NCBI GenBank assembly: GCA_029856105.1
Contig: JAHQWH010000045.1
Location: 1-48,122 of the forward strand
Source of the DNA: Promethearchaeia archaeon
GTDB lineage: Archaea > Asgardarchaeota > Lokiarchaeia > Sigyniarchaeales > SOKP01
Reading direction: 5' to 3'
Length of the DNA stretch: 48,122 bases
Part shown: positions 12,974-48,122 of the stretch, piece after piece
Layout: each line of letters opens with the position of its first letter
Numbering within the stretch: position 1 is the first letter of the stretch
Position numbers and translations under genes: made by a program
The notes under the pieces: model-generated
Told to the model about the DNA's origin: nothing
Seen by the model: the letters and a program-made list of their open reading frames with translations, nothing else
The model's database searches: none

Positions 12974-12994
12974 ATAAAATATTAGGGATTCATA

Positions 12995-13801: not shown

Positions 13802-14185
13802 TTAGTCAATTAAAAGCTTTAATCCTTGCACGAGTTGTTTCGGAGTAATACCATATAAGAAGGCTAAATGGAGCGTCTTAACGTCGTTTTCAATATTAGC
13901 AACGTCCTTATTTAGAGCTTTGTATTCTTCTGCAATCTCTTTTAACTTCGAATATGAAGTTTCTTTGGAATCACTTAATAATCCAAAATTCCCCCCGAAC
14001 GCAGTAAACATATTATGAATTAATTCCATTTCTTTATCAGAAAACGATCTTGAGCAATCTTCACAAACTATTCTAAAGGACATTCCAATCTTTTTAATCT
14101 TAAAATTAGATTGGGATTTATTTTGGCAAAGAACGCATCTAACAGAGCTAAGTTTTTTCTTATCTCTTACAACAGGCGTTATCAT
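13802..14185 (-). CDS. zinc-finger protein, paralogue of 32445-32822
   Basis: CxxC...CxxC, FSDKEMELIHNMFTAFGGNFG, GITP shared with the paralogue. Confidence 0.7.
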   Translation of the reverse strand: MITPVVRDKKKLSSVRCVLCQNKSQSNFKIKKIGMSFRIVCEDCSRSFSDKEMELIHNMFTAFGGNFGLLSDSKETSYSKLKEIAEEYKALNKDVANIENDVKTLHLAFLYGITPKQLVQGLKLLID

Positions 14186-14312
14186 AAAATTGAGATTAAT
14201 CTTGCATATTTAAACAAAAATTTTAAGCAAAAAATTTCAATAGATAAGCAAGATACAAAAATATTTAAACCTTTACTTTTTTGTCAAAAGACTTGTCTAT
14301 TAATCTAAGGAT

Positions 14313-15467
14313 CTACAGGATTGTTTCTAAATCATCTAATTTTTTTAAGAGCCAACTTTTAAACTCTTGAAAGTTTTCTACTGAAGGTATTGGTTCTATA
14401 GTAACTTTTACGCTCTCACTCTTGATATTTATAGTAGGGTTAATCGGTTTATGCAGAGTAGTATTAGCATGTTTGTTTTCTTCCTTGACATCGGGTAAAT
14501 AAGCAATTGGGATTTTTAACTTGTCGAAAATTATTTGGAAATCTAAAAGATCGTTCTCGTTAGTTTGAGTCTTAGTATCTATCATTTGAACCCATTTAGA
14601 CACGAAATCGGGGGGGATTCCTTTTTCCCAGTGGTGGTTCCGCAAATAATTATACAGTTTTTTAGGGTAGAAAAGCTGTTCTACATCCAAATTAGCGGGA
14701 TTTACTTTATCAAAGCGATAATTGTGAAGTAATTGTATGAATTCTTTCCCGATTTTCCTGTTAGTTTTCAAAATAAACTCGTATTCGAAAGAAAAATCTT
14801 TTAGCGGTTTAGAAGACTTTTTTTTGGGCATTTTTTTTGGTCTTTCGAATTTGGGTATTTGGATCTTAAAATATGAACTAGTAAAAGTTAAAATCTTGTC
14901 CCAGAAAATCTGATCGTAATCGCGCATAAGTTTGGGAAGATTATCCGCGTTATTCTTATTATTTAAATCTACGAAGATTTTTGTTGCTACGCTTTTAATT
15001 TTAAGAATTTCATCTAATAATATTTGCTCGTTTTGAGAAGTTTGGATTAGATGTTGCTCAAAAGACAAATTCACTCTTTCCGGCGCGTAATTGAGAAAAG
15101 AATTGTTCTTTTTGTTGTAAAAAATAAATTTATGGCCATTTGCTAAATGCTCTACATTCTCGTGCGTGTTGATTACACAGTGGATGTTAGGGGCTTCCAA
15201 TAAGATTTTAATATCTTCAATTTTTGCATTCAATATATAATAAAATGTAGGTTGCTGAGAATAGGAGCTACTATCTTCAAACTCAATGATCTCGCGAAGG
15301 TTATGTAACACAGTAGAATCTAAATCAACTACTTCGTACCCTACAGTAAAGCAATCTATCGAATGAATGTGTTTCAAATCGACGTAAGGATATATTACCA
15401 AGTTTTTTTGCTGAAAGAATAAAATGTTTAAAAATTCTGGTGATATGAAATCGTATATAGTATCCAT
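14313..15467 (-). CDS. hypothetical protein, third gene of the mglB-mglA operon
   Basis: 384-aa ORF with GGAG RBS, 30 nt downstream of the mglA-like gene. Confidence 0.75.
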   Translation of the reverse strand: MDTIYDFISPEFLNILFFQQKNLVIYPYVDLKHIHSIDCFTVGYEVVDLDSTVLHNLREIIEFEDSSSYSQQPTFYYILNAKIEDIKILLEAPNIHCVINTHENVEHLANGHKFIFYNKKNNSFLNYAPERVNLSFEQHLIQTSQNEQILLDEILKIKSVATKIFVDLNNKNNADNLPKLMRDYDQIFWDKILTFTSSYFKIQIPKFERPKKMPKKKSSKPLKDFSFEYEFILKTNRKIGKEFIQLLHNYRFDKVNPANLDVEQLFYPKKLYNYLRNHHWEKGIPPDFVSKWVQMIDTKTQTNENDLLDFQIIFDKLKIPIAYLPDVKEENKHANTTLHKPINPTINIKSESVKVTIEPIPSVENFQEFKSWLLKKLDDLETIL

Positions 15468-15497
15468 AATTCGTCTAATTCTCCTAAATTGTTGAAT

Positions 15498-16151
15498 TTA
15501 TATCCTAAAATAGTTGAAAATTACTTGGATCATTAAGTCTTTAAAACATCTCCGAACACTATCTCCTTTTAAAGCTACAGTTGGGTACACTACTGGCGCT
15601 CCATCATCAAATTCATCGGATTGTGGGAGTCCTAACTCCGCTTTAAAAGCCTTTAGAGAAATGGCATTCTCCAAATCTCTCTTATTTAGTTGTATTACAT
15701 ATGGAATCCCCTTACCGTGAGTGAAACTACTTAGTTCTCGAAAGCTTCGCTTGTTTTGTTCCATCTTTTCGGGGTCGGAATCAGCTACGAACACTACGCC
15801 GTCAGCACCATCCAATACGTATTCTCGCGTAGATAAAAAACGTTCTTGTCCTGTTGCCGTAACGATTTGCGCAATAATGTTGAATTTGATCTCTTTAAGA
15901 TTAAAATAAAAAGTAAGTCGTATTGAATCTTGCCATAAAGTTCTGCCATCAGTCGTTTCTATGGAATATCCCGCATTTAATTTAACTCCATCGAACTTTT
16001 CTCGCAGCCTAAAATAATTGGTTGTCTTACCTGACTCCCCAGGACCCCAATACACAATTTTGAACTGAAGCACTTCTTTTAACGCGTTAAAACCCGATTC
16101 ACTATTGATTACTGCTTTTTTTTTCTCATCTTTCTTGGAATCTACAATCAT
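15498..16151 (-). CDS. mglA: MglA-family small GTPase
   Basis: KIVYWGPGESGKTTN, GRTLWQD, TATGQ, DGVVFVADS, NKRD. Confidence 0.88.
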   Translation of the reverse strand: MIVDSKKDEKKKAVINSESGFNALKEVLQFKIVYWGPGESGKTTNYFRLREKFDGVKLNAGYSIETTDGRTLWQDSIRLTFYFNLKEIKFNIIAQIVTATGQERFLSTREYVLDGADGVVFVADSDPEKMEQNKRSFRELSSFTHGKGIPYVIQLNKRDLENAISLKAFKAELGLPQSDEFDDGAPVVYPTVALKGDSVRRCFKDLMIQVIFNYFRI

Positions 16152-16177
16152 ATTTCACGCTACTCCTCTAATTGTAA

Positions 16178-16711
16178 TTAAGCTGATTGAAATACTTTCT
16201 TTTTTAATTCTCTAAGGTATTCTTTCAACTCATGTTCGCTCATTTGAAGTTTGGTCATAATTGTTTGATTTTTAGTGATAGCTTCTTTAATTTTATGCGA
16301 GAATTTTCTCATTTGCAAAATAAGTACGCCAATATTTACCATATTATCAACTAATAAAACCACGAGGATCTCTCGTTTTCCTTTTTTATGAAGTATTACA
16401 TCTCCAATTGATTTAACGTAAAGCTGCAAATCTTTATATATAAGCGTCGCTCTTATTAACGAATCTGTTTCAAAAAAGTCTTGCGCTTGGCGAGCAACAC
16501 CGAATAACGCAGCGCCGATTGAGCTTAAATCCCAATAATTTAACTTACGATCGAATCTAGAGTCGATTGCTATGATTTTTGCATCTTGATCAATTGCAAT
16601 AAGCCCATATATGTATCCTCTTCTAGTTAACATTCCGTAACTATAACGGATTTCGTCTAAAACAATTGTTATTTCGTTTTCATACAAAGCTTTAGGAACA
16701 AATAAAGTCAT
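16178..16711 (-). CDS. MglB-like roadblock/LC7 protein
   Basis: LIAIDQDAKII, LSSIGAALFGVA, VNIGVL roadblock pattern; immediately upstream of mglA. Confidence 0.75.
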   Translation of the reverse strand: MTLFVPKALYENEITIVLDEIRYSYGMLTRRGYIYGLIAIDQDAKIIAIDSRFDRKLNYWDLSSIGAALFGVARQAQDFFETDSLIRATLIYKDLQLYVKSIGDVILHKKGKREILVVLLVDNMVNIGVLILQMRKFSHKIKEAITKNQTIMTKLQMSEHELKEYLRELKKKVFQSA

Positions 16712-16821: not shown

Positions 16822-17664
16822 TTGGTAACACTTACGATTATTATTATGATCGAATCGAAGAAAAAAGAATCAGAATCGTTTGAACATATAAAAATAAAGG
16901 ATTTTTTTTACGATAACCTCCCACTTAATAACAATGTAAAAAAGATTAAACTAGAATATCCGATTGGCAATCGAATAGCCGATGTATATTGCAAGCTAGA
17001 GAATGGAAAAGATGTGGTAGTTGAAATTCAGCATTCAATGATTCTTTCCAAAGATTTACTCCAACGCACTAGAGAGTATAACGATCATAATTGCTATGTT
17101 TTATGGGTTTTTAACGGGAGTTCTTTTGAGAGATTACCTGAGATCGAAGATAAAATACGGATTTTAGGTTTTGAAAGAAGTTCTCATTTATTGTATCGCG
17201 GGCGCGTGTATTATATCAACATGACAAAAACAGGAGTCCATAGCTCCGTGTATCCTCTACATTTTGCTAATTATTATGAAGGTAAAATTTCTGATTACGG
17301 ATTTCGCTATTATAAAAAGTCCAAAACCAAAAAAAGCGTGGTTCCAAGCGATATTCCGTCTCTTAAGCTAAAATTATTTAAAAACAAGGGATATAAATTA
17401 GCAGGATTTCACGACGATAATGTTCGAAAGACTTGTACCGAGATTCTAAGCCAATTCTTAATAGATTACGAGAATGTTGAAGATAAAGTTAAAAAAGTTA
17501 AAAAAATGAAGTCTCATCAAAAAAAATTATTCATAATCATCGCTATGTTCGGGCGACAATTTGGATTATATTTGCTCTTTGACGCGTTAAGACGCCTTAA
17601 AGTGGTCGGCAAAGAAGACTTTCATTACATGAAAGTAAGCTATATTTATTTGATGAAATCATAA
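16822..17664 (+). CDS. CoiA-like PD-(D/E)XK nuclease
   Basis: ES..H..IK, LEY.IG.RIADV, VEIQHS, QRT.EY...YVLWVF match the CoiA nuclease pattern. Confidence 0.75.
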   Translation: MVTLTIIIMIESKKKESESFEHIKIKDFFYDNLPLNNNVKKIKLEYPIGNRIADVYCKLENGKDVVVEIQHSMILSKDLLQRTREYNDHNCYVLWVFNGSSFERLPEIEDKIRILGFERSSHLLYRGRVYYINMTKTGVHSSVYPLHFANYYEGKISDYGFRYYKKSKTKKSVVPSDIPSLKLKLFKNKGYKLAGFHDDNVRKTCTEILSQFLIDYENVEDKVKKVKKMKSHQKKLFIIIAMFGRQFGLYLLFDALRRLKVVGKEDFHYMKVSYIYLMKS

Positions 17665-17983
17665 AATTGAAATAAAGGCTAATTGCCAAATATAATACTA
17701 TTTATATTAAAAAATCTTTTCCCTCAATTCATAGGACAAAAAGGAAAAGAAATTAACTTTATTTCTGAATTTGCCTTTTCCATTAACTAACATGGAAAAA
17801 ATATAAAACGGGTTAAATGTTTAGAAAAGATTTAAATATAAAAATTATTATATCTAGATTTGTATTATTTTTTTACAAAAAAGGCGTATTTAAGAAAAAC
17901 ATTACGGCAGTGAAAGATTAATAAGAATAATACAAATTTAACAAAATTGGTTAAAAATATTAAAGAGTTTTAATTAGGATAAC

Positions 17984-18496
17984 ATGCTTGACGCAATTTT
18001 TAAGATCGTTATTTTCGGTGATGCAGGTTGTGGAAAAACAACATTAACAAAAAGATTTAAGACAGATTTATTCATATCAGATTCTCAGATGACTATCGGA
18101 GTTGATTTTGAAACTAAAATCTTTGATGTTGATGGAAAAAAGGTAAAGTTAATGATCTGGGATTTCGGTGGCGAGGAGAGATTTCGATTCATCTTACCTA
18201 AATATATAATTGGTGCTATGGGAGGGATATTAATGTATGATGTTACAAATTATCCCTCTCTTGCTCACATTGACAATTGGTTATCCATTATAAATGGTAG
18301 AAAGGAACAAATTCCACTTCTTTTACTTGGCGGTAAAGCGGATTTAGATAAAATTAGAGAAATTTCTTTTAAAGACGGAAAAAAAATTGCTAAAGTAAAG
18401 GGATTTAGCGGTTTTACGGAATGCTCTAGCAAGACGGGTGAAAACGTAGAAAAATCGTTTGAAAATTTAACAAGAATAATGTTAAGTAGATTTTAA
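17984..18496 (+). CDS. Rab-like small GTPase
   Basis: GDAGCGKT, TIGVDF, WDFGGEERF, GKAD, SSK; no C-terminal prenylation motif. Confidence 0.93.
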   Translation: MLDAIFKIVIFGDAGCGKTTLTKRFKTDLFISDSQMTIGVDFETKIFDVDGKKVKLMIWDFGGEERFRFILPKYIIGAMGGILMYDVTNYPSLAHIDNWLSIINGRKEQIPLLLLGGKADLDKIREISFKDGKKIAKVKGFSGFTECSSKTGENVEKSFENLTRIMLSRF

Positions 18497-18596
18497 CTTA
18501 AATCTGCTTTTATTAATATAATAAGCTATTTTATTTGTAGATGTAAATAAATTTTAAAATTGATATAAAATTTCATTTTTGTTTTAATAAAATTTT

Positions 18597-19277
18597 TCAA
18601 TGCTTGTTTTTAAACACGTAACAATCCAGAACTAATAGAAAAGCTATAATTGAGTAGTACAAAATCCATTCGATTATAGGGATTGCAATGGCGCAATTTA
18701 AGACGAATAAAGCGAGTGGAACTATCAACCCGAATGCGCCCAACTTTTTCAAAGCGCACTTATGAGATAAAACTATGTTTAGCGAGAAAAAGAAGATAGA
18801 AACGACTATACCGCTAAAAGCGAAAAAAGCAGAAATTCCGTGGTATATTTGTCTAGGACCGGCTCGATCCAAGCTAAAAAATCCTACGAAAACTAGCCCA
18901 AGGTTGCCAACAACGCCTGAAACTAACCCAATTTTCGCAAATAACAGCGAATGCTTCGAGTTTTTGTACCGAACTTTTAGTTTTATGCTAAAACTAACGG
19001 TGACCGGCACACTGATTAAACCTGCGAACACGCAAAAAGTGTCGTGCAACCACGAAAAAGGAAATACGGCTTCGCGCCCGAGGTCGCTGATGTAGTGGGT
19101 GAAAACGCTGTAACCGAAAAAATAAGCTGTTATTATGCTAGTAAAAAGGCAAAACGCGTAAAAAAAGCTTCCGTACAACAAAATCTTGTTTAGACGCTCG
19201 ATTATTCTCTCTTTTGAACGCTTTTTTGTTCCTAACTCGAAATTTATGTCAGATTTTAATCTTTGCTCGGTTATCAC
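18597..19277 (-). CDS. DUF998-family membrane protein
   Basis: YSVFTHYISDLG, VGFF...YHG, multiple TMs. Confidence 0.75.
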   Translation of the reverse strand: MITEQRLKSDINFELGTKKRSKERIIERLNKILLYGSFFYAFCLFTSIITAYFFGYSVFTHYISDLGREAVFPFSWLHDTFCVFAGLISVPVTVSFSIKLKVRYKNSKHSLLFAKIGLVSGVVGNLGLVFVGFFSLDRAGPRQIYHGISAFFAFSGIVVSIFFFSLNIVLSHKCALKKLGAFGLIVPLALFVLNCAIAIPIIEWILYYSIIAFLLVLDCYVFKNKH

Positions 19278-22275: not shown

Positions 22276-22881
22276 TTACAAGTTTCCGGATTTATTTATC
22301 TTTAATTTATTCCGAGCCATGTGAAAGGCGTAGGCGGAGCAAGAGCACATGGCTCTTAAATTTTTTTGGAGTATATAATTATTGTTGGCTAAATTTGGAT
22401 CGTTACGATCGGTTACAAAGATAATCAAGGCAAGCTGAGTTGGAACGTGAGGCCAAAAAAATCTGCGACCTAATAAGACATGTAGAAGCTCTAAATTCTT
22501 TTTTGCTCTCTGATAATCGAATACGGGGGCAATTTTATAAGCCTTGTGAAGGTATACTCTTACTTTTCGATAAAGACGCTTTCTTTCGGGAGTCCACGCG
22601 ATGTAACCAGAACGTAACATTTCGTTAAAAGCTTTAGCTTCTTTTAAAAATCTGCTCATAACATCTAAAACGAGAATCTCAGGCACATGCGTCTGTTTCG
22701 CAATATTTTTAACGAGGAAGTGACTCAGCTCTATAACGCTTTTATCGCCGTTAGTTAAGCTCTCGCACCTAAAAAAGTGATCTAATACTCTTTTTTTAAT
22801 TAAAAAACGCTTAGATAATTCGCTTAGCACATCTAAATTTTTCACCAAAAATACCGATTCACTCGTATTTCCAGCCATCAT
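22276..22881 (-). CDS. hypothetical protein, C-terminal half resembles a TFIIB cyclin repeat
   Basis: QLALIIFVT...ILQKNLRAMCSCSAYAFHMARNKL resembles the TFB AAAAIYIA...TQKEIA..GVSE.TIR..YKEL pattern. Confidence 0.5.
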   Translation of the reverse strand: MMAGNTSESVFLVKNLDVLSELSKRFLIKKRVLDHFFRCESLTNGDKSVIELSHFLVKNIAKQTHVPEILVLDVMSRFLKEAKAFNEMLRSGYIAWTPERKRLYRKVRVYLHKAYKIAPVFDYQRAKKNLELLHVLLGRRFFWPHVPTQLALIIFVTDRNDPNLANNNYILQKNLRAMCSCSAYAFHMARNKLKINKSGNL

Positions 22882-23591: not shown

Positions 23592-24686
23592 CTAAGATAG
23601 TTGGTCTAAAGTTTTTTGTACGGTTTGTGGGCTTATTTTCTGCTTTTCGAAATAGTCTCGGCACTTGTCGAAATTCGCAAATAGCTTGGCTAAATTTTTT
23701 TGTACCCTCTCCCTATTTAAATAGTGTTCTTCACACAATAAAGAAAGAGTTCGTTGCTCGTTGGGAAAATTCCAATTTAAACTAGGGTACTGAATAATAA
23801 CTTCGGGTAGCAAAAATATTTTTCTAACTTTCGCAATCAGTTCTTGAGTAAGGGAAGAAAAATCGTAGTTTTTTTTCTCCTTTAAAATTACATTTTCCAA
23901 ATTTTTGTGGTTTTTAACGAACTTATAGGCGTGATTCGGTCCAATTTTTCTAATCCCCGGAAAATAATCGTTTCCAATAAGGATTCCTATGTCGACGAGT
24001 TGGAACTGGTCGATTCCTAATCGCTTTAAATTATCTTTCAGATCGATTACCACAGGCACGACCTTTTGGTACTTCCACCTTCCTTGCACTTTCCGTCTCA
24101 GCGATTTCGAAAAGTTTTGTATCTGGTGCGGGCATCCGAAGAGAAGTGAATCGAAATCTTGGGAGTTGGAATAATGGGCGAGCCTATCTTTGACCAATTG
24201 AGCGCATTGAGATTCTGCCGAAGCGGGAGAACTTATGCAAGGTATTCCTAAAGCACCTAAGAGCTGTTTCGATTCTTTGATGATATTAGGCCATAGATAT
24301 TCTCTGGACATCGCGATTTTTTTTGCGCTTTCCCTGTTTCCAGAACGAATCATCGATCGATACCAATTTTGCGTGAAAATGAAGTCGTTAAGTCGGTCTT
24401 TCGTTTTTAACTTCTTGAGCTCTGAGTCGAGTCCGTCGAAGCAAAAAATCGGGAAAATTTTCTTGGAAAAGTAAAAGTTAATCCTGTACAACAAACCATA
24501 GAGGTGAGATATCGGTCTTTGAGTTCGATCTAAGATTAGTCCCGCGCGAGAACCGTCTGGGTTTTTTCGGGCGAAGTTAAATAGGCTCATAATCACATTC
24601 GGGGCGTCTATTGCCATAATTTTACCCGCTAACTCGGAAAATTCGATTTTATTTCGGGCAATGAGCTCTTGTAGTTTAACTCCCAT
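23592..24686 (-). CDS. fen: flap endonuclease 1 (FEN1/XPG) family paralogue
   Basis: MGV, AIDA, SHLYGLLYR, FDG, SQDFDSLLFG, GNDY.PG...IGP, C-terminal QKTLD PIP-like motif. Confidence 0.9.
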   Translation of the reverse strand: MGVKLQELIARNKIEFSELAGKIMAIDAPNVIMSLFNFARKNPDGSRAGLILDRTQRPISHLYGLLYRINFYFSKKIFPIFCFDGLDSELKKLKTKDRLNDFIFTQNWYRSMIRSGNRESAKKIAMSREYLWPNIIKESKQLLGALGIPCISSPASAESQCAQLVKDRLAHYSNSQDFDSLLFGCPHQIQNFSKSLRRKVQGRWKYQKVVPVVIDLKDNLKRLGIDQFQLVDIGILIGNDYFPGIRKIGPNHAYKFVKNHKNLENVILKEKKNYDFSSLTQELIAKVRKIFLLPEVIIQYPSLNWNFPNEQRTLSLLCEEHYLNRERVQKNLAKLFANFDKCRDYFEKQKISPQTVQKTLDQLS

Positions 24687-26264: not shown

Positions 26265-26633
26265 TTGAAGAATAAAGGAGACGGGATAATAATTTACCAT
26301 CAGAAAAGAAGAAGCCCAAATAAAGTGTTTTTAGCTTTTCTCGGAATTTTAGTATTTATAGCGTTTTACGTCCCTTTTTTTGGTTCGAACCTTCAATATC
26401 AGACAGGTACTGTTTTTAAGTACATATTCAATATGATCGGTAATCTATTTTTGATATTAGGGGGTGCAAGTCTAATTATAAACATTTTAAAGGTATTTGG
26501 TAAACGGATAAGCATAGGTGGATTTACAATAAGCATTCTACTTTTATGGATTGGCGCCTTTCTTACAGGGACTTCTTTTACGATTATGGGATTTCTTATC
26601 GGAGGAAATAGACCGCCGATAGGATATCATTAA
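26265..26633 (+). CDS. small membrane protein (about 3 TM)
   Basis: GAGTGA RBS, hydrophobic segments. Confidence 0.7.
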   Translation: MKNKGDGIIIYHQKRRSPNKVFLAFLGILVFIAFYVPFFGSNLQYQTGTVFKYIFNMIGNLFLILGGASLIINILKVFGKRISIGGFTISILLLWIGAFLTGTSFTIMGFLIGGNRPPIGYH

Positions 26634-27150: not shown

Positions 27151-27180
27151 TTTAACCCCTTAAATTAAATAATATTTAAA

Positions 27181-33626: not shown

Positions 33627-33655
33627 GATTTAATCACCATCTAAGATTTTTACTT

Positions 33656-36776: not shown

Positions 36777-38075
36777 TTGAAAAAAAAAATTAAAAAAAAG
36801 TTAGTGATTAAAAAAAAAATGGCAACCCACGAATTAGTAAAAATCGATTCGCTAGAAGTCGACTCCGCTCAAAACCCTTTGGAGCGCTGCGATATTTGCG
36901 GTTCTTGCGATATTGTCGAAACTCGCGAGGGCTACACCTGTCGTGACTGTGGTATCGTTCTGGAAGTTCAGAAATTAGAGTACCACAGACCGTATGACGC
37001 CGACATCGTTCAATACGCCGTTTTAGGTAAAACACAAATGGGGTACAAAAGCGAAAGGCGCGCAACAAAAAATTCCGTTAGGCTCGAAGGGTTAAACAAG
37101 TTAGACTCTCAATGTACGAGCGAAGAAAACGTTGTAATTTCGGCAAAGATTTTGATAAAAAGCATTTTAACAAACCTTGACTTTCCTCTGAACGACTTTG
37201 TTAGCATTTTAGAAACCTTCAAAAAGATTCGAGCTCAATTAGGAAAAGGCACGAAATACAGGAGCACCGAAATGTTAATCCCTTGCGTGATTTATTTTTA
37301 TTACAAGCATAACAATACGCCCATAAGCGAAAAAGAATTATTAGAAGTTTCGAAAATTTCTAAAAAAGATTTCAACGAGTTCAAGATTCCTATGGCAAGC
37401 TTATGGCCGCAATACAAAGAAAGAGACCGCAAGGAATACATAATCCAAAGAATTTTAGAAATTACCGAGCACTTTGATTTGGGAATGCCGTTTTATTACC
37501 AGTCTTACAAGATTTTATCTCGGTTTTACGAGAAAATTAAAAACACGAAGGACGACGTAATAGTGGGTCTCGTGACCTCCATCACTCTTCTCTGTTCTCA
37601 AGCCGAGGGAGTGAGCGTCTCAGCTCTTTGCGAGAGGTTAGGGATCAAAATGTCGACGATCCACAGGCAAGTGGAGAGGAGAATTATAGAGAGATTTAGA
37701 GTTCCAGGTTTTAGAAGTTTAGTAAAATCCGCTGGTTTGTTAAAGAAAGTTATGACTAAATTAGGAGTGCTCGACTCTACTTTTATCGATGTAGACGGAG
37801 AATCAGTCAATTACGAAGATTCCCTCGTTGATGGCGCCGACATCATCCAAGTAGTCTTAGGGAACGCGACCCATGTGTTTAACCACTTAAACGAGAGCAA
37901 TGATTTTTACCTATTCTTAAAAGACATTCATGGGTACTTATTTGCGACCATCATTCAGAATCATAACAATTACATTGATAACGATAGAAAAGTAGAAAAT
38001 TGTGAAAACAAAAGATTTGTTAAGCTAGAATTGTGGAGGTATTACAACCCCACGGGGCCCCCTTTGACTTGTTAG
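36777..38075 (+). CDS. divergent transcription initiation factor IIB (TFB) paralogue
   Basis: Zn ribbon CDICGS..IV....YTCRDCGIVL, two cyclin-like repeats (YRSTEMLIPCVIY; VSALCERLGIKMSTI), long C-terminal extension. Confidence 0.8.
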   Translation: MKKKIKKKLVIKKKMATHELVKIDSLEVDSAQNPLERCDICGSCDIVETREGYTCRDCGIVLEVQKLEYHRPYDADIVQYAVLGKTQMGYKSERRATKNSVRLEGLNKLDSQCTSEENVVISAKILIKSILTNLDFPLNDFVSILETFKKIRAQLGKGTKYRSTEMLIPCVIYFYYKHNNTPISEKELLEVSKISKKDFNEFKIPMASLWPQYKERDRKEYIIQRILEITEHFDLGMPFYYQSYKILSRFYEKIKNTKDDVIVGLVTSITLLCSQAEGVSVSALCERLGIKMSTIHRQVERRIIERFRVPGFRSLVKSAGLLKKVMTKLGVLDSTFIDVDGESVNYEDSLVDGADIIQVVLGNATHVFNHLNESNDFYLFLKDIHGYLFATIIQNHNNYIDNDRKVENCENKRFVKLELWRYYNPTGPPLTC

Positions 38076-38226: not shown

Positions 38227-39315
38227 TTATTGTTTTCTCTTCCTTACATGTTTAATTAACAATATGGTTACTATGCCTAATATTGCTACTCCACTAATAA
38301 TCAAAATTAAAAAAATTATTCCACAATCGTTATTTTCGAAAATATTCTCATTACACTCGACTTCTTCTATGCATTCATTGTTTCCTAAGAAAGTATTTCC
38401 TATGACGGTGTTATAATCACTATACCACAAAAATATCCCATACTCGTTGTTATTTGCAGTGTTTCCCGAGATGGTGTTAAAATCACTCCAAAGTAAAGAA
38501 ATCCCAGAATTATCATTGTTATATGCAGTGTTTCCCGAAACGGTGTTATAATTACTAAAAGTTAAATACATCCCATACTCGTTGTTATTTGCGATGTTTC
38601 CCAAAACGGTGTTACGATCACCCGAAGCTATAATTATCCCATTCTCGTTGTTATTTGCGATGTTTCCCGAAATGGCGTTAAAAACGCTCACATGTAACAA
38701 TATCCCATGATAATTATAATTTACGTGGTTTCCCGAAATGGTGTTATAATCACTCCTATCTAAATATATACCACGAAAGTTGTTATTTACATCGTTTCCC
38801 GAGATAGTATTATTATCACTATAAAATAAACCCATCCCACTACTATTAGATGAACAATTGTTATCAATTAAGAATCCATTATCCGTGTTATTCAATAGAA
38901 TTCCCGCATTATATGCTCCTTCCGAATTGAAGACAGTGCAATTTTCAATCCTAAAGTATGCAGTGGAATTTTCAATCAAGATGCAACTTCCAGTATTATT
39001 AGTATCTATTACCAAATCTTCTATGACATAAGGGTCGGAATAAGTGCCATCCCCCGTACAAATTCCCGCACTCTTAGCAACAGTCCAATTATTATCAATA
39101 TGAATTTTACCCGAAACTGCTGAGATTTTTGGATTTTTATTATCAAAATTAATATCATCGCTATATTCCAAACTTTTGATGCTACTGCCCGTAACAAAAC
39201 CAAGATTGACGGTAATTATTGGTGATAAAGCGAAAATGATTCCTAAAGCGATTAAAATAATAATTTTTGATTTTGCATTTGATTTCATTTTATTTACTTT
39301 TCTCAGCATTTTCAT
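38227..39315 (-). CDS. cell-surface right-handed beta-helix (NosD/CASH) protein, paralogue of 24730-25845
   Basis: CTGDGT.SDPYVIE, 22-aa GI.L..SD.NTISGN repeats with about 66-bp DNA period, TM + RKRKQ tail. Confidence 0.9.
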   Translation of the reverse strand: MKMLRKVNKMKSNAKSKIIILIALGIIFALSPIITVNLGFVTGSSIKSLEYSDDINFDNKNPKISAVSGKIHIDNNWTVAKSAGICTGDGTYSDPYVIEDLVIDTNNTGSCILIENSTAYFRIENCTVFNSEGAYNAGILLNNTDNGFLIDNNCSSNSSGMGLFYSDNNTISGNDVNNNFRGIYLDRSDYNTISGNHVNYNYHGILLHVSVFNAISGNIANNNENGIIIASGDRNTVLGNIANNNEYGMYLTFSNYNTVSGNTAYNNDNSGISLLWSDFNTISGNTANNNEYGIFLWYSDYNTVIGNTFLGNNECIEEVECNENIFENNDCGIIFLILIISGVAILGIVTILLIKHVRKRKQ

Positions 39316-39525: not shown

Positions 39526-42456
39526 ATGCAATCGAAAAAAACTATAGTAATTGGAATTGTATCAATATTATTTTTAGCTTGTTTTTTGATTTTTGACAGC
39601 AATAGCAAGTCTCAAGTTGCCTTGGATATCGTATCATATGTCAATTTCGATACTCCAAAATCTTCCGATGTGACAAATCTTGAAATTATCGAATCTATAT
39701 TCGACTCTAAAAACGATGATTATATTACCTACGGTTATTATTCTCAACTTTACTCCGATTCGCTTCAAGCAACTTATTACGCGCTTTCAGTTTTAGACGC
39801 CATCGGAAAATTAGATGAAATTGATCAAGGAGAAGTTTCTAATTATGTAATGTCGTTTTACAACTCAAGCTCTCACCAGTTCGTAGATTCAAGCGCGAAA
39901 AGATATATGTCTTCTATAATACCAAACTTATATATGCCGCTAACTACTTTGTTAGAGGTTAATTGCTACGCGGTGCTATCTTTAGACATTTTAAACGGCC
40001 TGCAATTCATCGATACTGGTGAAACGATCGATTTTATTTGGGATTGCTACCACCCTGACCTACATGGATTTATAGGTCAGCCGTACGATGCTTCGTTAGA
40101 CGAAGGTTTTAAAATACCCACTGCGGACGATACATATTATGCTGTAATAACACTCGATCTTCTTATACCTGACTGGAACAGCTACTCCCAAGAAAGGAGC
40201 GACATCGTGAGCTTTATAGATGGGTTACAATCAATAGGCTCCCACGCAGGCTTCTATAACGATAACGAACCATTATTTGATTCTTTGTTAGAGATAGAAC
40301 CGAATCAATTCGCGTCTTTTTACGCCATCAAAACTTTAGAAACCTTTGGAAGTAGCTATATCAATGTTATTGACATGGATAGGTTTCAGCAAGATCTAAA
40401 CGACCTTTATTACCCCGACGATTTCTACTTCGATATATCTTCGGTCAATTGGTTCACTAATTATACTAATATAGTCGCAACTGCCATAAATTTAGAACTG
40501 TCAGACATGATGGATTTTACAGGTATTAACAGAAGCGAAGTAATAAGTTTCATAATTAATAATAGGAACGCTTTGGGCGGTTGGGACGCTTCGACTACGA
40601 TCAAGTACCATGAATTAATAGACACTTTTCAAATCGTTAGGTCGCTTGCAAACACGGGAGCGCTCTCGGAATTAACTCTAAGCGAGAAAAACGAGATCGC
40701 CTCTTTTATCCGGCTATTTTCCCAGTATAACGGGTACTCGTTGCTTTCGGAAGATTACACGTCAGTAGAGCTTATTCACTCGATAATTTCTTCTTACGAT
40801 TATTTCGATAAAATCGCGGACTTAGACATACAAGGGTTGTACGACCAGTTAAAAGGAAGCGCGCTGTATATGTGGGAGAAAGACTTTTTTTTCGCTTGTA
40901 CTAAGCGGGAAGCAAATGTCCCAAGCTTCCGTTCCAAACCGCTCGATTATTACACTTTGGGATATCACAAACACCTCCAAGAAATAAACGCGTTCTTCTC
41001 CCATAAAGAGACTTACTTGATTCTTAGTTCGCTACAGAAAATTTTCAAACTTAACGATTTTGCCTCCTCCCACGATCTTAATTCCGTATTGCAAGATATA
41101 ATCGATTCGCAATTTTTAGATTCTGAATACCAAGAAAATTTTGGAGCTTTTCTTTTCTATGATCTGGAGCAGATTTCGGAATGGAAGAATAGGTTGATTT
41201 ACTTGCAGTACTCTTTTTACGCGACTAAAGTTATGGAACTTATTGCTGATTATTTAGGGTTAGGACCTATTACGAATTTAGGCTTCGATAAATCGGGTTT
41301 GGCGACTTACATCGTTAGAAACGTTGTAGAATCTCCAACAGAACTTTTTTTTGATGTCGAATATTCTAACTCAATCGAGATCGCTTTAGAAAACACTTAT
41401 TACGCGATTTACATCTTGAAAGCAATTGACGAGTACAATTTGGATAGTACGAAAATAGAAAACTTCGTTTTTAACCACCTTAATTACTCAAACGTAAAAA
41501 ATCTCTATTACAGCTACAAGATATCGGAAATTTTAGACTTACAGGTCAATTTTGACGTGGAACAATCGCACTCTCTAATACAATCGATTTATTCTAACTC
41601 TCACAACGAGTTTTTTGAGTCTACGGAAAGAAACGCGCTGGAGCAAGATATTTTCGCGTGGGTCTGCGAAATGGCTAAAAACGATCAAGTAAGAGTTAAC
41701 ACCCAATACTCTAACTCCATCCAATTGGGAGAAAATAACTTAATTTCTGTTGAGCTGTGCAACCTAATTTTGTCCGATTTCGGCCAATACACGACGGTTA
41801 AACTAGAAAGCGAGCAACTCGGAACCATTTTATTAGATAAAATGACAAATCACACATATCAAAAAGAGATACACGTTCCTATCGACCCTCAGAATTACCC
41901 TCTAATCGAAGGAGAATTGTGCGTGTACGACGGTAGCCTTAAAGTTGCGCAATTCCCAATCTCTTTTCAAACTACTTTTGATACGATTTATAGCATTTCC
42001 ACTTCAAAAACAGAATCACGGATCGAAATAACAGTTCTCGCGTCCTTACGGTTTGTCTCCGGAGAACAACCAGTGTACGATGGATTTATGAGCGCCGAAG
42101 CGTATAGAGACGGTACTTACATTGATACTATATTTTTCGCTTCGGAAGACGATTTGAAAAGCACTACATTTACTTTCGTCTATCGACCTTCTTACTCCGG
42201 AAATTATCGTTTTGCAATATATATGGAAGATCCCTACCATTCGAGTTCGCAATTTGTGAGCGATATTACTTACATTTATAATGATTTAGATCCAATTCAT
42301 GGAGACGATCCTATTCCAAGTTACGAAAGCGACATAAACTTAACAATTCCATTGGCAGTGGTTATTCTTACTGTAGGATCGGGGGGGTTTGCTAGTTCTT
42401 TAATAAAATCTAAGAAAAAAATTAAAGGCAAGCTAAATAAATTTAAATCTAAATAA
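39526..42456 (+). CDS. large cell-surface protein with prenyltransferase/squalene-cyclase-like alpha-alpha repeats and C-terminal beta domains
   Basis: Signal helix; repeated TYYA...L..L and GGW/GGF-like motifs; C-terminal TM + basic tail. Confidence 0.75.
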   Translation: MQSKKTIVIGIVSILFLACFLIFDSNSKSQVALDIVSYVNFDTPKSSDVTNLEIIESIFDSKNDDYITYGYYSQLYSDSLQATYYALSVLDAIGKLDEIDQGEVSNYVMSFYNSSSHQFVDSSAKRYMSSIIPNLYMPLTTLLEVNCYAVLSLDILNGLQFIDTGETIDFIWDCYHPDLHGFIGQPYDASLDEGFKIPTADDTYYAVITLDLLIPDWNSYSQERSDIVSFIDGLQSIGSHAGFYNDNEPLFDSLLEIEPNQFASFYAIKTLETFGSSYINVIDMDRFQQDLNDLYYPDDFYFDISSVNWFTNYTNIVATAINLELSDMMDFTGINRSEVISFIINNRNALGGWDASTTIKYHELIDTFQIVRSLANTGALSELTLSEKNEIASFIRLFSQYNGYSLLSEDYTSVELIHSIISSYDYFDKIADLDIQGLYDQLKGSALYMWEKDFFFACTKREANVPSFRSKPLDYYTLGYHKHLQEINAFFSHKETYLILSSLQKIFKLNDFASSHDLNSVLQDIIDSQFLDSEYQENFGAFLFYDLEQISEWKNRLIYLQYSFYATKVMELIADYLGLGPITNLGFDKSGLATYIVRNVVESPTELFFDVEYSNSIEIALENTYYAIYILKAIDEYNLDSTKIENFVFNHLNYSNVKNLYYSYKISEILDLQVNFDVEQSHSLIQSIYSNSHNEFFESTERNALEQDIFAWVCEMAKNDQVRVNTQYSNSIQLGENNLISVELCNLILSDFGQYTTVKLESEQLGTILLDKMTNHTYQKEIHVPIDPQNYPLIEGELCVYDGSLKVAQFPISFQTTFDTIYSISTSKTESRIEITVLASLRFVSGEQPVYDGFMSAEAYRDGTYIDTIFFASEDDLKSTTFTFVYRPSYSGNYRFAIYMEDPYHSSSQFVSDITYIYNDLDPIHGDDPIPSYESDINLTIPLAVVILTVGSGGFASSLIKSKKKIKGKLNKFKSK

Positions 42457-43093: not shown

Positions 43094-43669
43094 ATGACTC
43101 AGAACGCAAAAATTAAGCAGTTAAATCAGATCTTATCAGCGTTGGAGAAGTTCGAAGTCCGAAAAGATAGCCTTTTTAGTCTCGATAAGTTAGCAGACTA
43201 CCTCGATCTATCTACGAGCGAATTAGATGCATTTTTAGAGATAATTTTTCGCTTCCAAAAGTTATTTGATTGTGTTTTCGAAGGTTCCTTTCTCTGTAAA
43301 AAGTGGAAAAACGATAAAAATTACTTAATTTTAAAACCAAAATCAGAAGTTAAAGATGGTAGCGTTCTCGAACTAAAAGAAATAGAAATCGATCGAGACC
43401 AAATTAAATTGTTAAGCGACATAGTCTACTTTTTTCGACGCGTAAAAATAGGGAAAGGGTTTGATCTGAAAAAAAATGGCACTGAGCTTTCGAGAAAGGT
43501 AAAAAAGCTAAAGAAGGCTCACCCGTACTTTTTCGAGAGTAAAGGGAACGATCTCGTGTACCCTTCAAAATTGGCGATAGAAGCGGGTAACTTAATCTTG
43601 TCTTACGATAGAAGCAAAAAGTCGGTTTCCAAAATACAAATAGGAGAATACTTCGTAAAAATCGTTTAG
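43094..43669 (+). CDS. hypothetical protein, possible winged-helix DNA-binding
   Basis: FSLDKLADYLDLS.SEL HTH-like; first gene of the hef operon. Confidence 0.6.
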   Translation: MTQNAKIKQLNQILSALEKFEVRKDSLFSLDKLADYLDLSTSELDAFLEIIFRFQKLFDCVFEGSFLCKKWKNDKNYLILKPKSEVKDGSVLELKEIEIDRDQIKLLSDIVYFFRRVKIGKGFDLKKNGTELSRKVKKLKKAHPYFFESKGNDLVYPSKLAIEAGNLILSYDRSKKSVSKIQIGEYFVKIV

Positions 43670-43685
43670 AAGGAGTTCGAGGTTA

Positions 43686-45860
43686 GTGATTGAATTAGAA
43701 GAAAGAAAAAGTAATAAAAATTCGAAAATTAAATACTTGCGAGAAAAGCAGATCGAACATAGGGAGTACCAACTAAAGATAGCCCAAGCGTGTGCGTCTA
43801 AAAACTCACTGGTAGTGCTTCCAACCGGTCTAGGAAAAACCATCATCGGGGTCTATGTTGCCGCAAAAATATTAGAAAATTTTCCCCCAAAAACAAAAGT
43901 TATTGTATTAGCCCCTACGCGACCCTTAATTAACCAACACTACGATTCTTTTAGAAGTTTAATGACGATTCCAGAAGAACAATTCGTCGTTTTAACGGGC
44001 AAAATTCCTCCTGAAAAAAGAGTAGATTTTTTTCGCGAAAACCAAATCGTTTTTTACACTCCACAAACGTTGAGAAACGATCTCGCTAATAGGAAATACA
44101 CTTTAGAAAGCGTTTGCTTAATAGTCTTCGACGAGGCTCATCATGCTTCTGGCGATTACGCTTACACTTTAATAGCGGACGAGTACATGGACCAAAACCC
44201 GGACGGTACTATTTTGGGGTTGACCGCTAGCCCTGGAGCGACTAAAGAAAAAATCAAAGCTCTATGCAAAAACTTACACGTTCCTCTGGAAAACATACAC
44301 ACGCGCACGAGAAAAGACGGCGATGTAAAGACTTATTTAAAACCGATGGATGTTTATAAAATCGGCGTTAATCTTACCGAATTAATGGAAAACATTTATT
44401 TATCGATTCAAAGCCTTTTAGAAGAGAGGTTGCAGTATCTTTCGCAATTAGGATTTTTGAGCGTCAAGGCTGACAGTTTATACGCTAAAGTTATCCGTAA
44501 GGATTTATTAAAGCTCAACGCCGAATTGGTGAAGTTAGTTCAAAGAGATGGCGATAAAACCGGAGTTTATAGTGCTCTATCGGTGAACGCTCAAGGACTA
44601 ATTCTTTTTCACATGCTCGAATTAATCGAACAACAAGGTTTAGATGTTTTGTTAATCTACCTAACGAAGGTAAAGCAGGACGCTCGTAAAAAGAATAGCT
44701 CGAAAGCGGTAAAAATACTAGCTTCAGATCATAGAATAAATCAAATCTTTATTGAACTTAAAAAAAACGAAGATTATTATCCTGAAAGATTGATTCACCC
44801 AAAATTTTACGTATTAGAAAAATTGTTGGTTCAAGAGTTCGAAAATAACCCGCCCTCGAGGGTTTTAGTATTCGTAAAGCTTCGAGACTCGGTAAAAAAC
44901 ATAACAAATAAACTTAAAGTAAACGGAAAAAACTTAATAAAACCCGCTCGATTCGTGGGGCAATCAACCAAATCTAAAGACGACAAAGGACTCTCTCAGA
45001 AAAAACAACTCGAAATATTAGACCAATTCAAACAAGGAAATTATAACGTTTTAATCTCAACTAACGTTGGAGAAGAAGGCCTCGACATAGCGGAGTGCGA
45101 TTTAGTGGTTTTTTATGACGTAGTAGCTTCAGAGATTAGGTTCATCCAGAGAAAAGGAAGAACGGCGCGACATAGGGAAGGGAAAGTAATTATCCTTTAT
45201 TGTAAGGACACGCACGATGAGATTTACATGCATATCGCTCTGAACAAGCTAAAGAAAATGAACTTTAACCTCAAAAGCGGGAAGCAATTAAAAACCACAT
45301 ATAATAATTCTCAAGCTCCTGGAGAAACTATAACTAACGCGAGATTAATAACGGAAGTACCCCTTGAAGACGTGAAAAAGATAAACGGCAATCAGAAACA
45401 AGGCAATTTGCAATCGTACATTCAAAAAACTCCAAGTGCGAAAAAAGAAAAACCTTTGACTGCTGAAATTAAAATAAGTCGATCTTTTTCCGTTAAATTT
45501 GGGATAAGGAAAAAGCTCCAACGCGACCAAATCCCTTTCGAAGTAGTTAAGTCAATAATTCACTTAAATTTGCTTGATCGAGTAATAATCCAAGTAATAG
45601 ATCCCCACCAATTCGTAGAGGATGTGCTTTTAAAAAAAATTACTTTATTAAGCAAAAAATACCACTTAATAGTTTCGATTTTCGATTTCGTCAATTTTAA
45701 TGAAGAATTTCGGGAAGAAGAAAGGTTGATTAAACAAAAAGTTATTAAATGGGGGCAGACGAACGATCTTCAAGCGATATCAATCGACAATCCCGAAGAA
45801 TTGTATTTTATCGTTAAAAACATATATTTACACGCTAAAAAAAAAATTGAAAGTGGATAA
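43686..45860 (+). CDS. hef: Hef/FANCM/Mph1-family SF2 helicase with degenerate C-terminal nuclease-like domain
   Basis: REYQ, LPTGLGKT, APTRPL, DEAHHA, GLTASPG, RFVGQ, EEGLDI, QRKGRTAR. Confidence 0.92.
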   Translation: MIELEERKSNKNSKIKYLREKQIEHREYQLKIAQACASKNSLVVLPTGLGKTIIGVYVAAKILENFPPKTKVIVLAPTRPLINQHYDSFRSLMTIPEEQFVVLTGKIPPEKRVDFFRENQIVFYTPQTLRNDLANRKYTLESVCLIVFDEAHHASGDYAYTLIADEYMDQNPDGTILGLTASPGATKEKIKALCKNLHVPLENIHTRTRKDGDVKTYLKPMDVYKIGVNLTELMENIYLSIQSLLEERLQYLSQLGFLSVKADSLYAKVIRKDLLKLNAELVKLVQRDGDKTGVYSALSVNAQGLILFHMLELIEQQGLDVLLIYLTKVKQDARKKNSSKAVKILASDHRINQIFIELKKNEDYYPERLIHPKFYVLEKLLVQEFENNPPSRVLVFVKLRDSVKNITNKLKVNGKNLIKPARFVGQSTKSKDDKGLSQKKQLEILDQFKQGNYNVLISTNVGEEGLDIAECDLVVFYDVVASEIRFIQRKGRTARHREGKVIILYCKDTHDEIYMHIALNKLKKMNFNLKSGKQLKTTYNNSQAPGETITNARLITEVPLEDVKKINGNQKQGNLQSYIQKTPSAKKEKPLTAEIKISRSFSVKFGIRKKLQRDQIPFEVVKSIIHLNLLDRVIIQVIDPHQFVEDVLLKKITLLSKKYHLIVSIFDFVNFNEEFREEERLIKQKVIKWGQTNDLQAISIDNPEELYFIVKNIYLHAKKKIESG

Positions 45861-46431
45861 AATGGAAGAAAATGCTTTTAAGAAAGACGAAACGCCTTAT
45901 TTAGTGTTTGTTTGTAAAAAATGTCATCAGTATTCTTACGTTAAAACCACTCAAAAAACCAAGAAATGCTTGCGCTGCGGCCGCACCCACCAAGTAAAAG
46001 ACCTGTTAAGGCTAGGTGAGATAGTTAATGGCATGACCGAAGCTGTAAATACTGTGAAAAAAAAGCAAACCGAACTAGCGATTCCAGAGTTCAGGTCGGA
46101 GGGCGATTTCGTTGTTGCTACAAACAAATTCTCAACTCGAACTCCTATTAAAAAAAGTAAGAATAAAGTTCTATCGAATAAAGATAGCAATAAGATTATA
46201 GATTTTAAAGAACAGTTTATCGAGATTCTGCTCGAACTCTCGAAGTTGTACGGTAAATTTCCTAAATACATGCTCGAGATCATGGCAGAAAATTACGAAA
46301 TTCCAGCTTTGGAATTAAAATTACTTATCAAAAGTTTTAAGAAACAAGGTATTTTAACCGAGCTAAAAAACGAGAACTTTTATTATCAACTATATATAAA
46401 GCATATCTCAAATTTTCACACTAAGGATTAA
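45847..46431 (+). CDS. DUF1922-like zinc ribbon fused to a winged-helix-like domain
   Basis: YLVFVCKKC...QKTKKCLRCG; C-terminal LIKSFKKQGIL.......YYQL. Confidence 0.65.
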   Translation: MKVDKMEENAFKKDETPYLVFVCKKCHQYSYVKTTQKTKKCLRCGRTHQVKDLLRLGEIVNGMTEAVNTVKKKQTELAIPEFRSEGDFVVATNKFSTRTPIKKSKNKVLSNKDSNKIIDFKEQFIEILLELSKLYGKFPKYMLEIMAENYEIPALELKLLIKSFKKQGILTELKNENFYYQLYIKHISNFHTKD

Positions 46432-46723: not shown

Positions 46724-46970
46724 TTTACTCGCTTTTAAGATTTTACTACCAAGAAACAGCGATCTTATATAAAAAAAAATTATCTTTTTTTTTCTATTCT
46801 ACCAAAAAATCGAGATTAAGGGGGCTTATCCCCCCTCTTAATGCACTCTACTTATATTAATACATTTCTACGCACAAGAACACATGGTTTAGATAAACGA
46901 TAAGTATTATAAATTACATAAAATATTGGTTAATCAAACACAATATAGTAAAAATTTGTAGGTAATCTTT

Positions 46971-47201
46971 ATGAGAAAAAAGACTATAGGAATAATTTTA
47001 ATAATTATTGGATTTTACTTATCGGTTTTTAATACGATTATGTCGATTCTATTGAATAGGGTACCGAATAGCGGAAGTCCAAGCGACGAATTGAGGAATT
47101 GGTGGATAAATTTTGGATTGTCAACATTAATAATTGCCGGAGTAGGTGTATTTTTAATTATAGTAGGTTGTTATTATTTGATAAAAAAAAGATTAGACTA
47201 A
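46971..47201 (+). CDS. small 2-TM membrane protein
   Basis: AGGT RBS, two hydrophobic helices. Confidence 0.65.
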   Translation: MRKKTIGIILIIIGFYLSVFNTIMSILLNRVPNSGSPSDELRNWWINFGLSTLIIAGVGVFLIIVGCYYLIKKRLD

Positions 47202-47285
47202 CTCAACTTTGATTACGAGATAGACTCTCCTTTTCCATATCAAGAAAAGAACCACTCTTTATATCTTAATATATTATATGAAAAA

Positions 47286-47573
47286 TTATATATCAGTAAA
47301 ATCTTTGTTGACATCTTTCAAGTAAAGCTTCATAAAGTACCGTTGGCGCTTTAAATAATCTTTTACTTGACTCGAATTCATATCCGGATTGCTTTTAATC
47401 ATTTTTTGGATGAATTGTAGAACTTCAAAGTTCTGCTCTTTTGTATTTTCAAACTCTATAATTTTATAATTATCTTGGTCGTCGCTTGATTCTTTAAAGA
47501 CTAAAAAATCTTTCATCCTCACTTTTTTTTTGAAGTTGAGGTCAAATGGATCTTTTTCGGTCTTAGAGTCCAT
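47286..47573 (-). CDS. hypothetical protein downstream of the Hel308-like gene
   Basis: 95-aa ORF starting 4 nt after the helicase stop. Confidence 0.65.
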   Translation of the reverse strand: MDSKTEKDPFDLNFKKKVRMKDFLVFKESSDDQDNYKIIEFENTKEQNFEVLQFIQKMIKSNPDMNSSQVKDYLKRQRYFMKLYLKDVNKDFTDI

Positions 47574-47577
47574 TTTT

Positions 47578-48122
47578 TTATCCGTTTTTTCCTATAATTT
47601 TTTTACACATGTTGATCCCTAACCCCGTTTTTCGATTTAATATGTAGGGATTTTCTTTCTTAACTTGGGTTGCCGTATGGTAACCGGCGTTATAAAATAT
47701 GCGCGCCCGGATCCTAGCTACATTGTTTAATCTTACAACCAGATCGAAAAGTTCTTCTCTGATCCCGTAATGCATCCTAATTTTGAGGGTTTCCGCCATC
47801 TCAGCAATGTTTATTAGTTTATCTTGTAAATCAAAGTCGGATTCGCTTAGGTGCATCGCGATAATCCCTATAAACGTAATAATTCTTTCAAGGTTATCCC
47901 GAACGGAGTACAAGTCGCCTGCCATAATTTTGTGTCTTTCTAAAATTTCATCGAGTGGTTCCTCGTCGCACCACTCTAACACGGGTTGGAGAAACTTGTA
48001 GTTCCTTGTTCTCCCTTCTGCTTTTAATACTTCATAGGCTGCTTTTACAACGTCTTGAAAAGATTCTATCTCGACTTGTTCTAACTTGTATCTTATCAAC
48101 ACTCCAGAGATGGGATACAAGT
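47578..48122 (-). CDS. Hel308/Ski2-like DEAD/DEAH helicase, C-terminal part (truncated by the window edge)
   Basis: L.EW.DE..L.EI..RH.I..GD; RMHYGIREEL.DL..L.NVAR.RAR..YNAGY (domain 5 RAR motif). Confidence 0.85.
   Translation of the reverse strand, partial: LYPISGVLIRYKLEQVEIESFQDVVKAAYEVLKAEGRTRNYKFLQPVLEWCDEEPLDEILERHKIMAGDLYSVRDNLERIITFIGIIAMHLSESDFDLQDKLINIAEMAETLKIRMHYGIREELFDLVVRLNNVARIRARIFYNAGYHTATQVKKENPYILNRKTGLGINMCKKIIGKNG

Follow-up and report, generated by a model that had tools for sequence, protein, structure and literature searches.

In Sulfolobales, the alternative transcription factor TFB3 turns on the Ced import system, the Ups pili and the HerA operon (PMC9905601, PMC11823120, PMC6101591). 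We compare with it here a block of genes at positions 13,802 to 48,122 of a 48,122-nucleotide contig from a Promethearchaeia archaeon (JAHQWH010000045.1; C45). This entire contig, referred to as the window, belongs to a 3.66-Mb assembly (GCA_029856105.1; 32% GC, 92% complete) labelled G000; relatives are labelled G002 and so on, and loci carry L-numbers. Like the DNA-import systems Ced (Sulfolobales, Desulfurococcales) and Ted (Thermoproteales) with the TFB3 regulon, the block is chromosomal, combines a membrane-anchored protein of VirB4/HerA fold with small two-helix membrane proteins and an alternative TFB, and is co-regulated with repair genes of the HerA-operon type. It differs in that the ATPase-fold protein has four transmembrane (TM) helices and lacks Walker A and B, that no CedA/VirB6-like channel was recognised, and that private RadA, RadB-like, RPA, FEN, Hef and Hel308 genes sit within the block; its TFB is full-length with a helix-turn-helix (HTH), whereas TFB3 is truncated and lacks the HTH. 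We do not count the block as a Ced system, since its ATPase-fold protein does not pass as an active ATPase and neither a channel nor a working motor was found. The fusexin (fsx1) elements of haloarchaea (PMC9259645) likewise carry VirB4/HerA-type genes in an island proposed for cell-cell exchange; unlike there, no fusexin or XerC/D-type integrase was found here, and inheritance follows taxonomy instead of conflicting with it.

The block is real, conserved and co-regulated, and no paper on this cluster was found in the literature searched. An earlier note on this DNA, made from the sequence alone, had proposed a second, specialised recombination toolkit, and this part of the proposal holds: the toolkit is divergent and co-inherited, canonical copies lie elsewhere, synteny is conserved and a promoter is shared. 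The genes named for 13802-48122 do lie there, with Pfam/NCBIfam matches for CoiA, RPA, FEN, RadA, RadB-like, M50, Hef and the Zn ribbon, except that RadA is split by a 31-nt insert, only the last 180 aa of Hel308 are present and Hef has no recognisable nuclease motif. Canonical counterparts exist for RadA (contigs C35 and C96), FEN1 (C191), long RPA (C34), Hef (C74 and C194) and TFB (three genes), but not for Hel308: no second Hel308-type gene was found in G000, and the block copy is the only one found. The conserved features are as follows.

13802-14185, minus strand: Zn-finger protein, a paralogue of the one at 32445-32822; forms the left end of the block and has the shared promoter
14313-16711, minus strand: core operon of a Roadblock protein (16178-16711), a small GTPase (15498-16151) and a 384-aa protein; promoter at about 16777; second copy on C35
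19380-20309, minus strand: short RPA paralogue, 309 aa (canonical protein on C34, 574 aa); core in the family; promoter
22276-22881, minus strand: conserved 201-aa protein; promoter; dN/dS 0.11
23592-24686, minus strand: FEN1 paralogue (XPG/FEN), 36% to the canonical C191 copy; promoter
26265-26633, plus strand: conserved 3-TM protein, 122 aa; promoter
26730-26954, minus strand: conserved membrane protein of 74 aa with two helices, a candidate pilin of CedA1/VirB2 type; has a promoter of its own at about 26994
28148-29495, plus strand: stand-alone topoisomerase-I-type Zn ribbon (28148-28465), followed by a surface protein of 332 aa anchored at its C terminus; the promoter site at 28087 is the strongest
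30204-31473, minus strand: RadA paralogue, 412 aa after intron removal; Walker A GPFKSGKT; extra C-terminal helix-hairpin-helix (HhH); promoter at about 31544
31473-31471, minus strand: probable radA start, the non-AUG codon ACG
32445-32822, minus strand: Zn-finger protein; promoter 32 nt before the start
32916-34768, minus strand: operon of an M50-like HExxH membrane protease (34007-34768), a 2-TM protein (33656-34006) and a RadB-like ATPase (32916-33626); promoter at about 34805
36777-38075, plus strand: TFB paralogue with Zn ribbon and C-terminal HTH; no shared promoter; candidate activator
39526-42456, plus strand: 976-aa surface protein with a prenyltransferase-type alpha-alpha toroid and N- and C-terminal hydrophobic segments; core; promoter
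43094-46431, plus strand: operon of a 191-aa protein, a Hef helicase paralogue (43686-45860) and a DUF1922 Zn ribbon; promoter at about 43056
47286-48122, minus strand: conserved 95-aa protein, and Hel308 truncated by the contig end to its C-terminal 180 aa; the block continues on C235 (L069)
C235, 1451-5218: 1255-aa membrane protein of VirB4/HerA fold, 4 TM helices

Synteny across Lokiarchaeia, which the earlier note had named as a check, was confirmed: about 20 window genes recur across 21 genomes, with their order mostly kept. The core runs Hel308, 95-aa protein, DUF1922, Hef, 191-aa protein, 976-aa surface protein, TFB, M50, 116-aa protein, RadB-like and Zn finger, and continues with RadA, 332-aa surface protein, Zn ribbon, 74-aa and 122-aa proteins, FEN, 201-aa protein, RPA, roadblock, GTPase and 384-aa protein. 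Because this order is kept in relatives, the grouping of the named genes is more than chance. Every core gene with a usable comparison had a dN/dS of 0.02-0.31, that is, purifying selection. In relatives, five further genes lie past Hel308, and in G000 contig C235 carries them. At the end of C235 stand the first 372 aa of Hel308, whose last 180 aa lie in the window. C45 and C235 do not overlap and were joined via the split Hel308 and the gene order in relatives. The block genes on C235 encode a 622-aa HhH and 2-TM protein, membrane proteins of 252 and 284 aa, the 1255-aa protein and a 111-aa protein.

A promoter model built solely from other genomes (consensus TTTTTYCTTTAWAT; cut-off 12 bits) found a site of at least 12 bits before 16 of the 53 block ORFs, all of them heads of conserved units, versus 58 of 3353 other genes, and none in window positions 1-13700. 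Archaeal promoters normally carry a purine-rich B recognition element (BRE) by the TATA box. In the shared motif, a T-rich run occupies the BRE position next to the TATA box, and the purine-rich pattern itself preceded 3/53 block ORFs versus 455/3353 others. The block TFB, which matches TFIIB only as a profile (E 7e-6), has a conserved recognition helix reading MSTIxxQV, in contrast to the TExTIRxR type of the three canonical TFBs, and it lacks the shared promoter both here and in 18 of 20 relatives. A TFB with a different promoter and an altered recognition helix, together with T-rich sites, is the picture expected of an alternative initiation factor and the genes under it. Judged from these sequences, the block promoter is probably read by the block’s own TFB in this family, and the combination may, tentatively, represent a conditionally expressed regulon like TFB3/Ced of Sulfolobales. 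Core genes exceed their neighbours in GC content at third codon positions (GC3; 23/24 loci) and in CpG (21/24), yet track the host baseline. We read this as a sign that the block has long been resident and is seldom transcribed; alternatives are a foreign origin or biased conversion.

The shared site also precedes the type IA topoisomerase gene in 12 of 22 family genomes, which are kin and not independent, but none of six canonical radA genes. Further sites lie before a herA-mre11-rad50-type operon (C161), an XPF-like gene and the long RPA gene, as checked in G000. The operon at C161:30236-36659, with the block promoter upstream, encodes HerA with an intact Walker A, followed by NurA-like, Mre11-like and Rad50-like proteins; this HerA is a candidate active partner for the 1255-aa protein. 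Two partial second sets with promoter and high CpG were also seen, namely a roadblock-GTPase-407-aa operon with an RPA-like gene (C35:31082-35097) and a TFB paralogue with an M50 protein and acidic proteins of 677 and 1790 aa (C191:2-8859). A ThiF protein (L069:252-1112) and two GNAT-fold proteins (C182; C161:104127-108828) have the promoter as well and accompany the block in many genomes.

The earlier note had pointed to the flanks as the place to look for VirB4/HerA, and a membrane protein of this fold is indeed present on C235, without Walker motifs. Sequence searches of Pfam, PDB and PHROGs with the 1255-aa protein gave nothing significant, and it was placed by fold and feature searches only: its predicted domain (pLDDT 82) matched HerA (E 8e-12), VirB4 (9.5e-9) and TrwB (4.8e-8) in Foldseek, and its feature neighbours include a cluster named CedB (0.90). 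The Walker A and B positions read NGxNSSRE and iPHlD, and because both motifs are degenerate across the family we regard the protein as a pseudo-ATPase. It was found in 102/134 family genomes; its profile matched 224/400 Asgard genomes, with strong matches spread over no fewer than a dozen families and the weakest probably being ordinary HerA. In distant families (G277, G312, G372, G387, G310, G255, G046) the pseudo-ATPase adjoins Hel308 and a divergent RadA, and these loci also hold FEN, a large surface-type protein and usually a RadB-like ATPase; the blocks of G312, G310, G372 and G387 (L168-L179) include a 2-TM surface protein of about 2600 aa. G049, which we take to be the cultured Ca. Lokiarchaeum ossiferum B35 (PMC9834061), carries the pseudo-ATPase at about 5.616-5.645 Mb together with Hel308, RadB-like, RadA, the GTPase operon, M50, Zn ribbon and Hef, in a version without recognisable TFB and pilin. 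The block is kept in many Asgard archaea. Three genomes that are 95-99% complete (G141, G072, G074) gave no match for the pseudo-ATPase, block RadA, block TFB or Hel308, which suggests that the module is lost whole.

Among the recombination genes, the block RadAs of the order group in a single clade with support 100; it is divided along family lines and falls outside the canonical RadAs. The tree came from a quick search, has long branches and contains no eukaryotic sequences, five rows including the G277 block RadA being omitted; the clade statement applies to the order, and monophyly across classes is not claimed. The Pfam Rad51 match lies at 30622-31422, and the canonical RadAs on C35 and C96 have the usual GE[YF]RTGKT loop. 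Two Asgard RadA clades have been described (PMC12722695), and this genome likewise has RadA paralogues, three in number; the available part of that paper gives no gene context and places Rad51/Dmc1 as a separate eukaryotic clade. The meiosis-like programme raised earlier is an analogy only, because the Rad51/Dmc1 split post-dates Asgard RadA (PMC12722695). The RadB-like ATPase has an intact Walker A. In the FEN1 paralogue of most family members, the usual EGE motif has its first Glu replaced by a SASAES-type motif, and in the block Hef the C-terminal nuclease motif was not recognisable. The M50B-like match of the protease is weak (E 0.003), and its HExxH is conserved.

The block radA is broken into two ORFs by a 31-nt insert (30690-30660, minus strand) after the codons for G-G-N. 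The insert has a 4-bp helix between two 3-nt bulges, and cuts after the second base of each bulge, as predicted for EndA, restore the frame and give the 412-aa protein; the genome has two EndA paralogues. Seven distinct 31-nt inserts occur in six genomes with the same length, position and central helix, and the insert is missing from most relatives. Across these inserts, 93% of cells are paired, with five compensated pairs (two-sided changes) and an invariant central helix. Between two intron-bearing genomes, the exon downstream of the insert remains under selection, with a dN/dS of 0.12. A probable bulge-helix-bulge intron, and with it a spliced recombinase mRNA, is what these features point to. 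Origin by target-site duplication was rejected, since the frame is not mended by deleting the 33 nt that the flanking repeats enclose, whereas deleting 31 nt at the bulge-helix-bulge cuts mends it. The short, frame-breaking bulge-helix-bulge insert in the cbf5 pre-mRNA of Crenarchaeota is likewise patchy among relatives (PMC2738675); the present one differs in lying in a recombinase gene of an Asgard archaeon and in being known from sequence alone. G008 (9% contamination) carries three divergent block copies (C20, C12, C49), two with the radA intron and one without. The start position of radA reads ATG, ACG, ATT or ATA across genomes, often just behind in-frame stops (L002-L012, L104-L121). 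The start lies behind a GGAGTTGAT-type site, and this arrangement as a whole is a possible translational damper.

The idea of a VirB2/CedA1-type pilin was drawn from the anatomy of the 74-aa protein before the structure search. Homologues occur in 85/134 family genomes with a dN/dS of 0.1-0.2; a larger profile gave no clear homologue in the distant Asgard loci. In Foldseek, the first-ranked match, a weak one (E 2.3), was 8DFU, the CedA1 pilus of A. pernix, with a TM-score of 0.62 over 73 columns end to end and 23% identity. The corresponding VIA match has Z 6.8, rmsd 5.2 and 69 aligned residues, and its 22% identity is the highest of the top 50. We consider this candidate CedA1-like pilin a lead and not a finding. 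Type IV pili are rare in Asgard archaea (PMC13705601). The G046 block, in another order, holds small 2-TM proteins (L135:2188-2535, 18048-18308 and 18321-18557, two in tandem) that resemble the candidate in anatomy and gave no significant match. The conserved membrane proteins of the block have 2-5 predicted TM helices, and the sole 6-TM protein is narrowly distributed.

The remaining features of the block are variable or narrowly distributed.

16822-18496, plus strand: CoiA-like nuclease (CoiA_nuc at 16822-17664) and Rab GTPase; variable passengers without promoter
18597-19277, minus strand: 6-TM membrane protein; promoter; only 5 loci, all within the genus
24730-25845, minus strand: NosD-type beta-helix surface protein; variable insert
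34861-35580: leucine-rich repeat (LRR) protein; variable insert
38227-39315: second NosD variable insert

CoiA, Rab, longin, NosD and LRR genes are passengers of the block. Among the 21 genomes, CoiA was found in 6, longin in 6, the NosD proteins in 6, LRR in 4 and several small ORFs in 1-2; clustering put the 6-TM protein together with a GNAT family, and likewise the GTPase together with Rab, which inflates both of these recurrence counts. None of the variable inserts has the shared promoter, and the Rab gene also has no fixed position among relatives. CoiA had been read as a marker of competence, which its variable position, its occurrence in 6/21 genomes, its lack of the promoter and a second copy on C48 do not support. 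Instead of the two surface-anchored proteins counted earlier, the block has four of surface type: the core ones at 28497 and 39526, and the pair of NosD inserts. The roadblock-GTPase genes, previously likened to the Myxococcus-type MglAB polarity switch, more probably correspond to a published Asgard operon, that of Roadblock, GTPase and DENN of Liu et al. (bioRxiv 10.1101/2020.10.19.343400), with the same three-gene order at 16711-14313. That paper draws no connection to recombination genes, its main text not mentioning RadA, HerA, VirB4 or TFB, and the DENN fold of the 384-aa protein is putative; the small GTPase matches Arf/Ras families in Pfam, where the roadblock protein gave no match. 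A PDB search with the 122-aa 3-TM protein gave no informative match, and an Rfam search of the window found nothing. The LRR insert contains an array of 66-nt tandem repeats (34885-35544). A 153-nt segment 5' of the Zn-ribbon gene is duplicated (27178-27330 and 27956-28108; 91% identity, 778 nt apart); the copies flank an 82-aa 2-TM ORF and are a possible insertion scar.

As the best explanation, which we put forward tentatively, the block would be a chromosomal, mostly vertically inherited and normally quiet regulon in which a second recombination toolkit is tied to a membrane complex. Recombination of DNA passed between cells may be its likeliest purpose, with membrane-tethered self-repair only slightly less likely. 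A signal would probably induce the TFB paralogue, which would switch on the T-rich promoters like an alternative sigma factor. The surface proteins, small membrane proteins and dead VirB4-like protein could then form a membrane platform on which the HhH-membrane protein holds DNA, a step we see as evenly balanced. Strand invasion and resolution would quite likely be carried out by RPA, RadB-like, RadA, Hel308, Hef, FEN and the Zn ribbon. The type IA topoisomerase of the host, whose gene often bears this promoter too, may take part. That the DNA substrate originates in another cell is conceivable and is proposed with caution. Splicing and the non-AUG start may provide extra gating of RadA output. 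It seems unlikely that the block proteins themselves form a DNA conduit. We also consider improbable an ancient inducible mating programme, with a TFB-driven CedA1-like pilin, adhesins, a platform on an inactivated VirB4, passage of chromosomal DNA through it from cell to cell and a private RadA set gated by tRNA-type splicing.

Several observations weigh against a regulon for recombining DNA between cells. Walker A GK[ST] is missing from the pseudo-ATPase in 34/35 family rows and out of register in the last, so no active motor is shown in the block, and no conserved 6-7-TM VirB6/CedA-like channel was recognised, no fold search having been made on the membrane proteins. VIA ranks the CedA1 match of the 74-aa protein 19/48,161, tied with generic hairpins and not significant, and there was no significant match in Pfam, NCBIfam, PDB sequences or the T4SS_pilin model. 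The block TFB clade and the pilin candidate hardly occur outside one family, whereas the core spans the Asgard archaea, and G074, which lacks the block, keeps the site before its topoisomerase. Composition stands out as the most atypical among 58 windows and some assemblies hold 2-3 block copies, both of which would also be compatible with mobility. As for bacterial-type competence, ComEC (PF03772) was not found in the 92%-complete genome, the positive control matching in 10/14; HAP2/fusexin (PF10699) was not found either, and here no control genome matched.

The same regulon may instead act on the cell’s own DNA, as a stress or developmental programme in which chromosomes are tethered at the membrane while they undergo repair, gene conversion or segregation and the dead VirB4-like protein is a scaffold only; we consider this possible, with some doubt. 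The lack of any active motor or channel found, the HhH-membrane protein, the full repair toolkit, the promoter common to the topoisomerase and the herA-mre11-rad50-type operon, and a block Hel308 that is the only one found in the genome all speak for it. It leaves the conserved surface proteins, the membrane protease and the weak pilin-like match unexplained. Routine repair can also do without the block, since it was not found in G141, G072 and G074.

It is unlikely that the block is an integrated conjugative or plasmid-like element, whether still active or long domesticated, with its own DNA-processing and transcription genes. Such an element would account for the atypical tetranucleotide and CpG content, the three copies in G008 and two in several other genomes, loss as a block, the VirB4-like gene and the many inserted passengers. 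No integrase was found in the genome, however, nor a tRNA in the window, an att-like repeat at the left end (the right boundary lies outside the assembled contigs) or a PHROG match for ten unknown proteins; no virion or replication genes or other hallmark of a virus or plasmid were found. Moreover, the left-flank genes are common to G002, G008 and G015, the RadA tree follows family taxonomy, composition tracks each host, the block is split over distant sites in G095 and G076, and the extra copies are mostly in bins with 6-9% contamination. As a separate observation, no tyrosine recombinase (PF00589) was found in the whole G000 genome, which is unusual for an archaeon and may reflect incompleteness.

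We consider a membrane-associated defence system against viruses or plasmids very unlikely: HerA-fold proteins serve in defence complexes and the loss is patchy, but the conserved order, pan-Asgard retention and recombinase-centred content are unlike defence islands, and no conserved toxic effector was seen, no search of a defence library having been made. Chance clustering of housekeeping or decaying paralogues, to which the single Hel308 and the missing catalytic features of Hef and FEN might point, is effectively refuted by synteny, purifying selection and the shared promoter.

Asgard archaea are the closest microbial relatives of complex cells. Gene exchange among them bears on the origin of sex, and no literature on a DNA-transfer system in this group was found. 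Even if the block serves repair only, the literature searched has no description of a membrane-tied recombination regulon under an alternative TFB in which the mRNA of a recombinase is probably spliced. The block offers handles in the form of a promoter that is defined and of candidates for the activator and the pilin.

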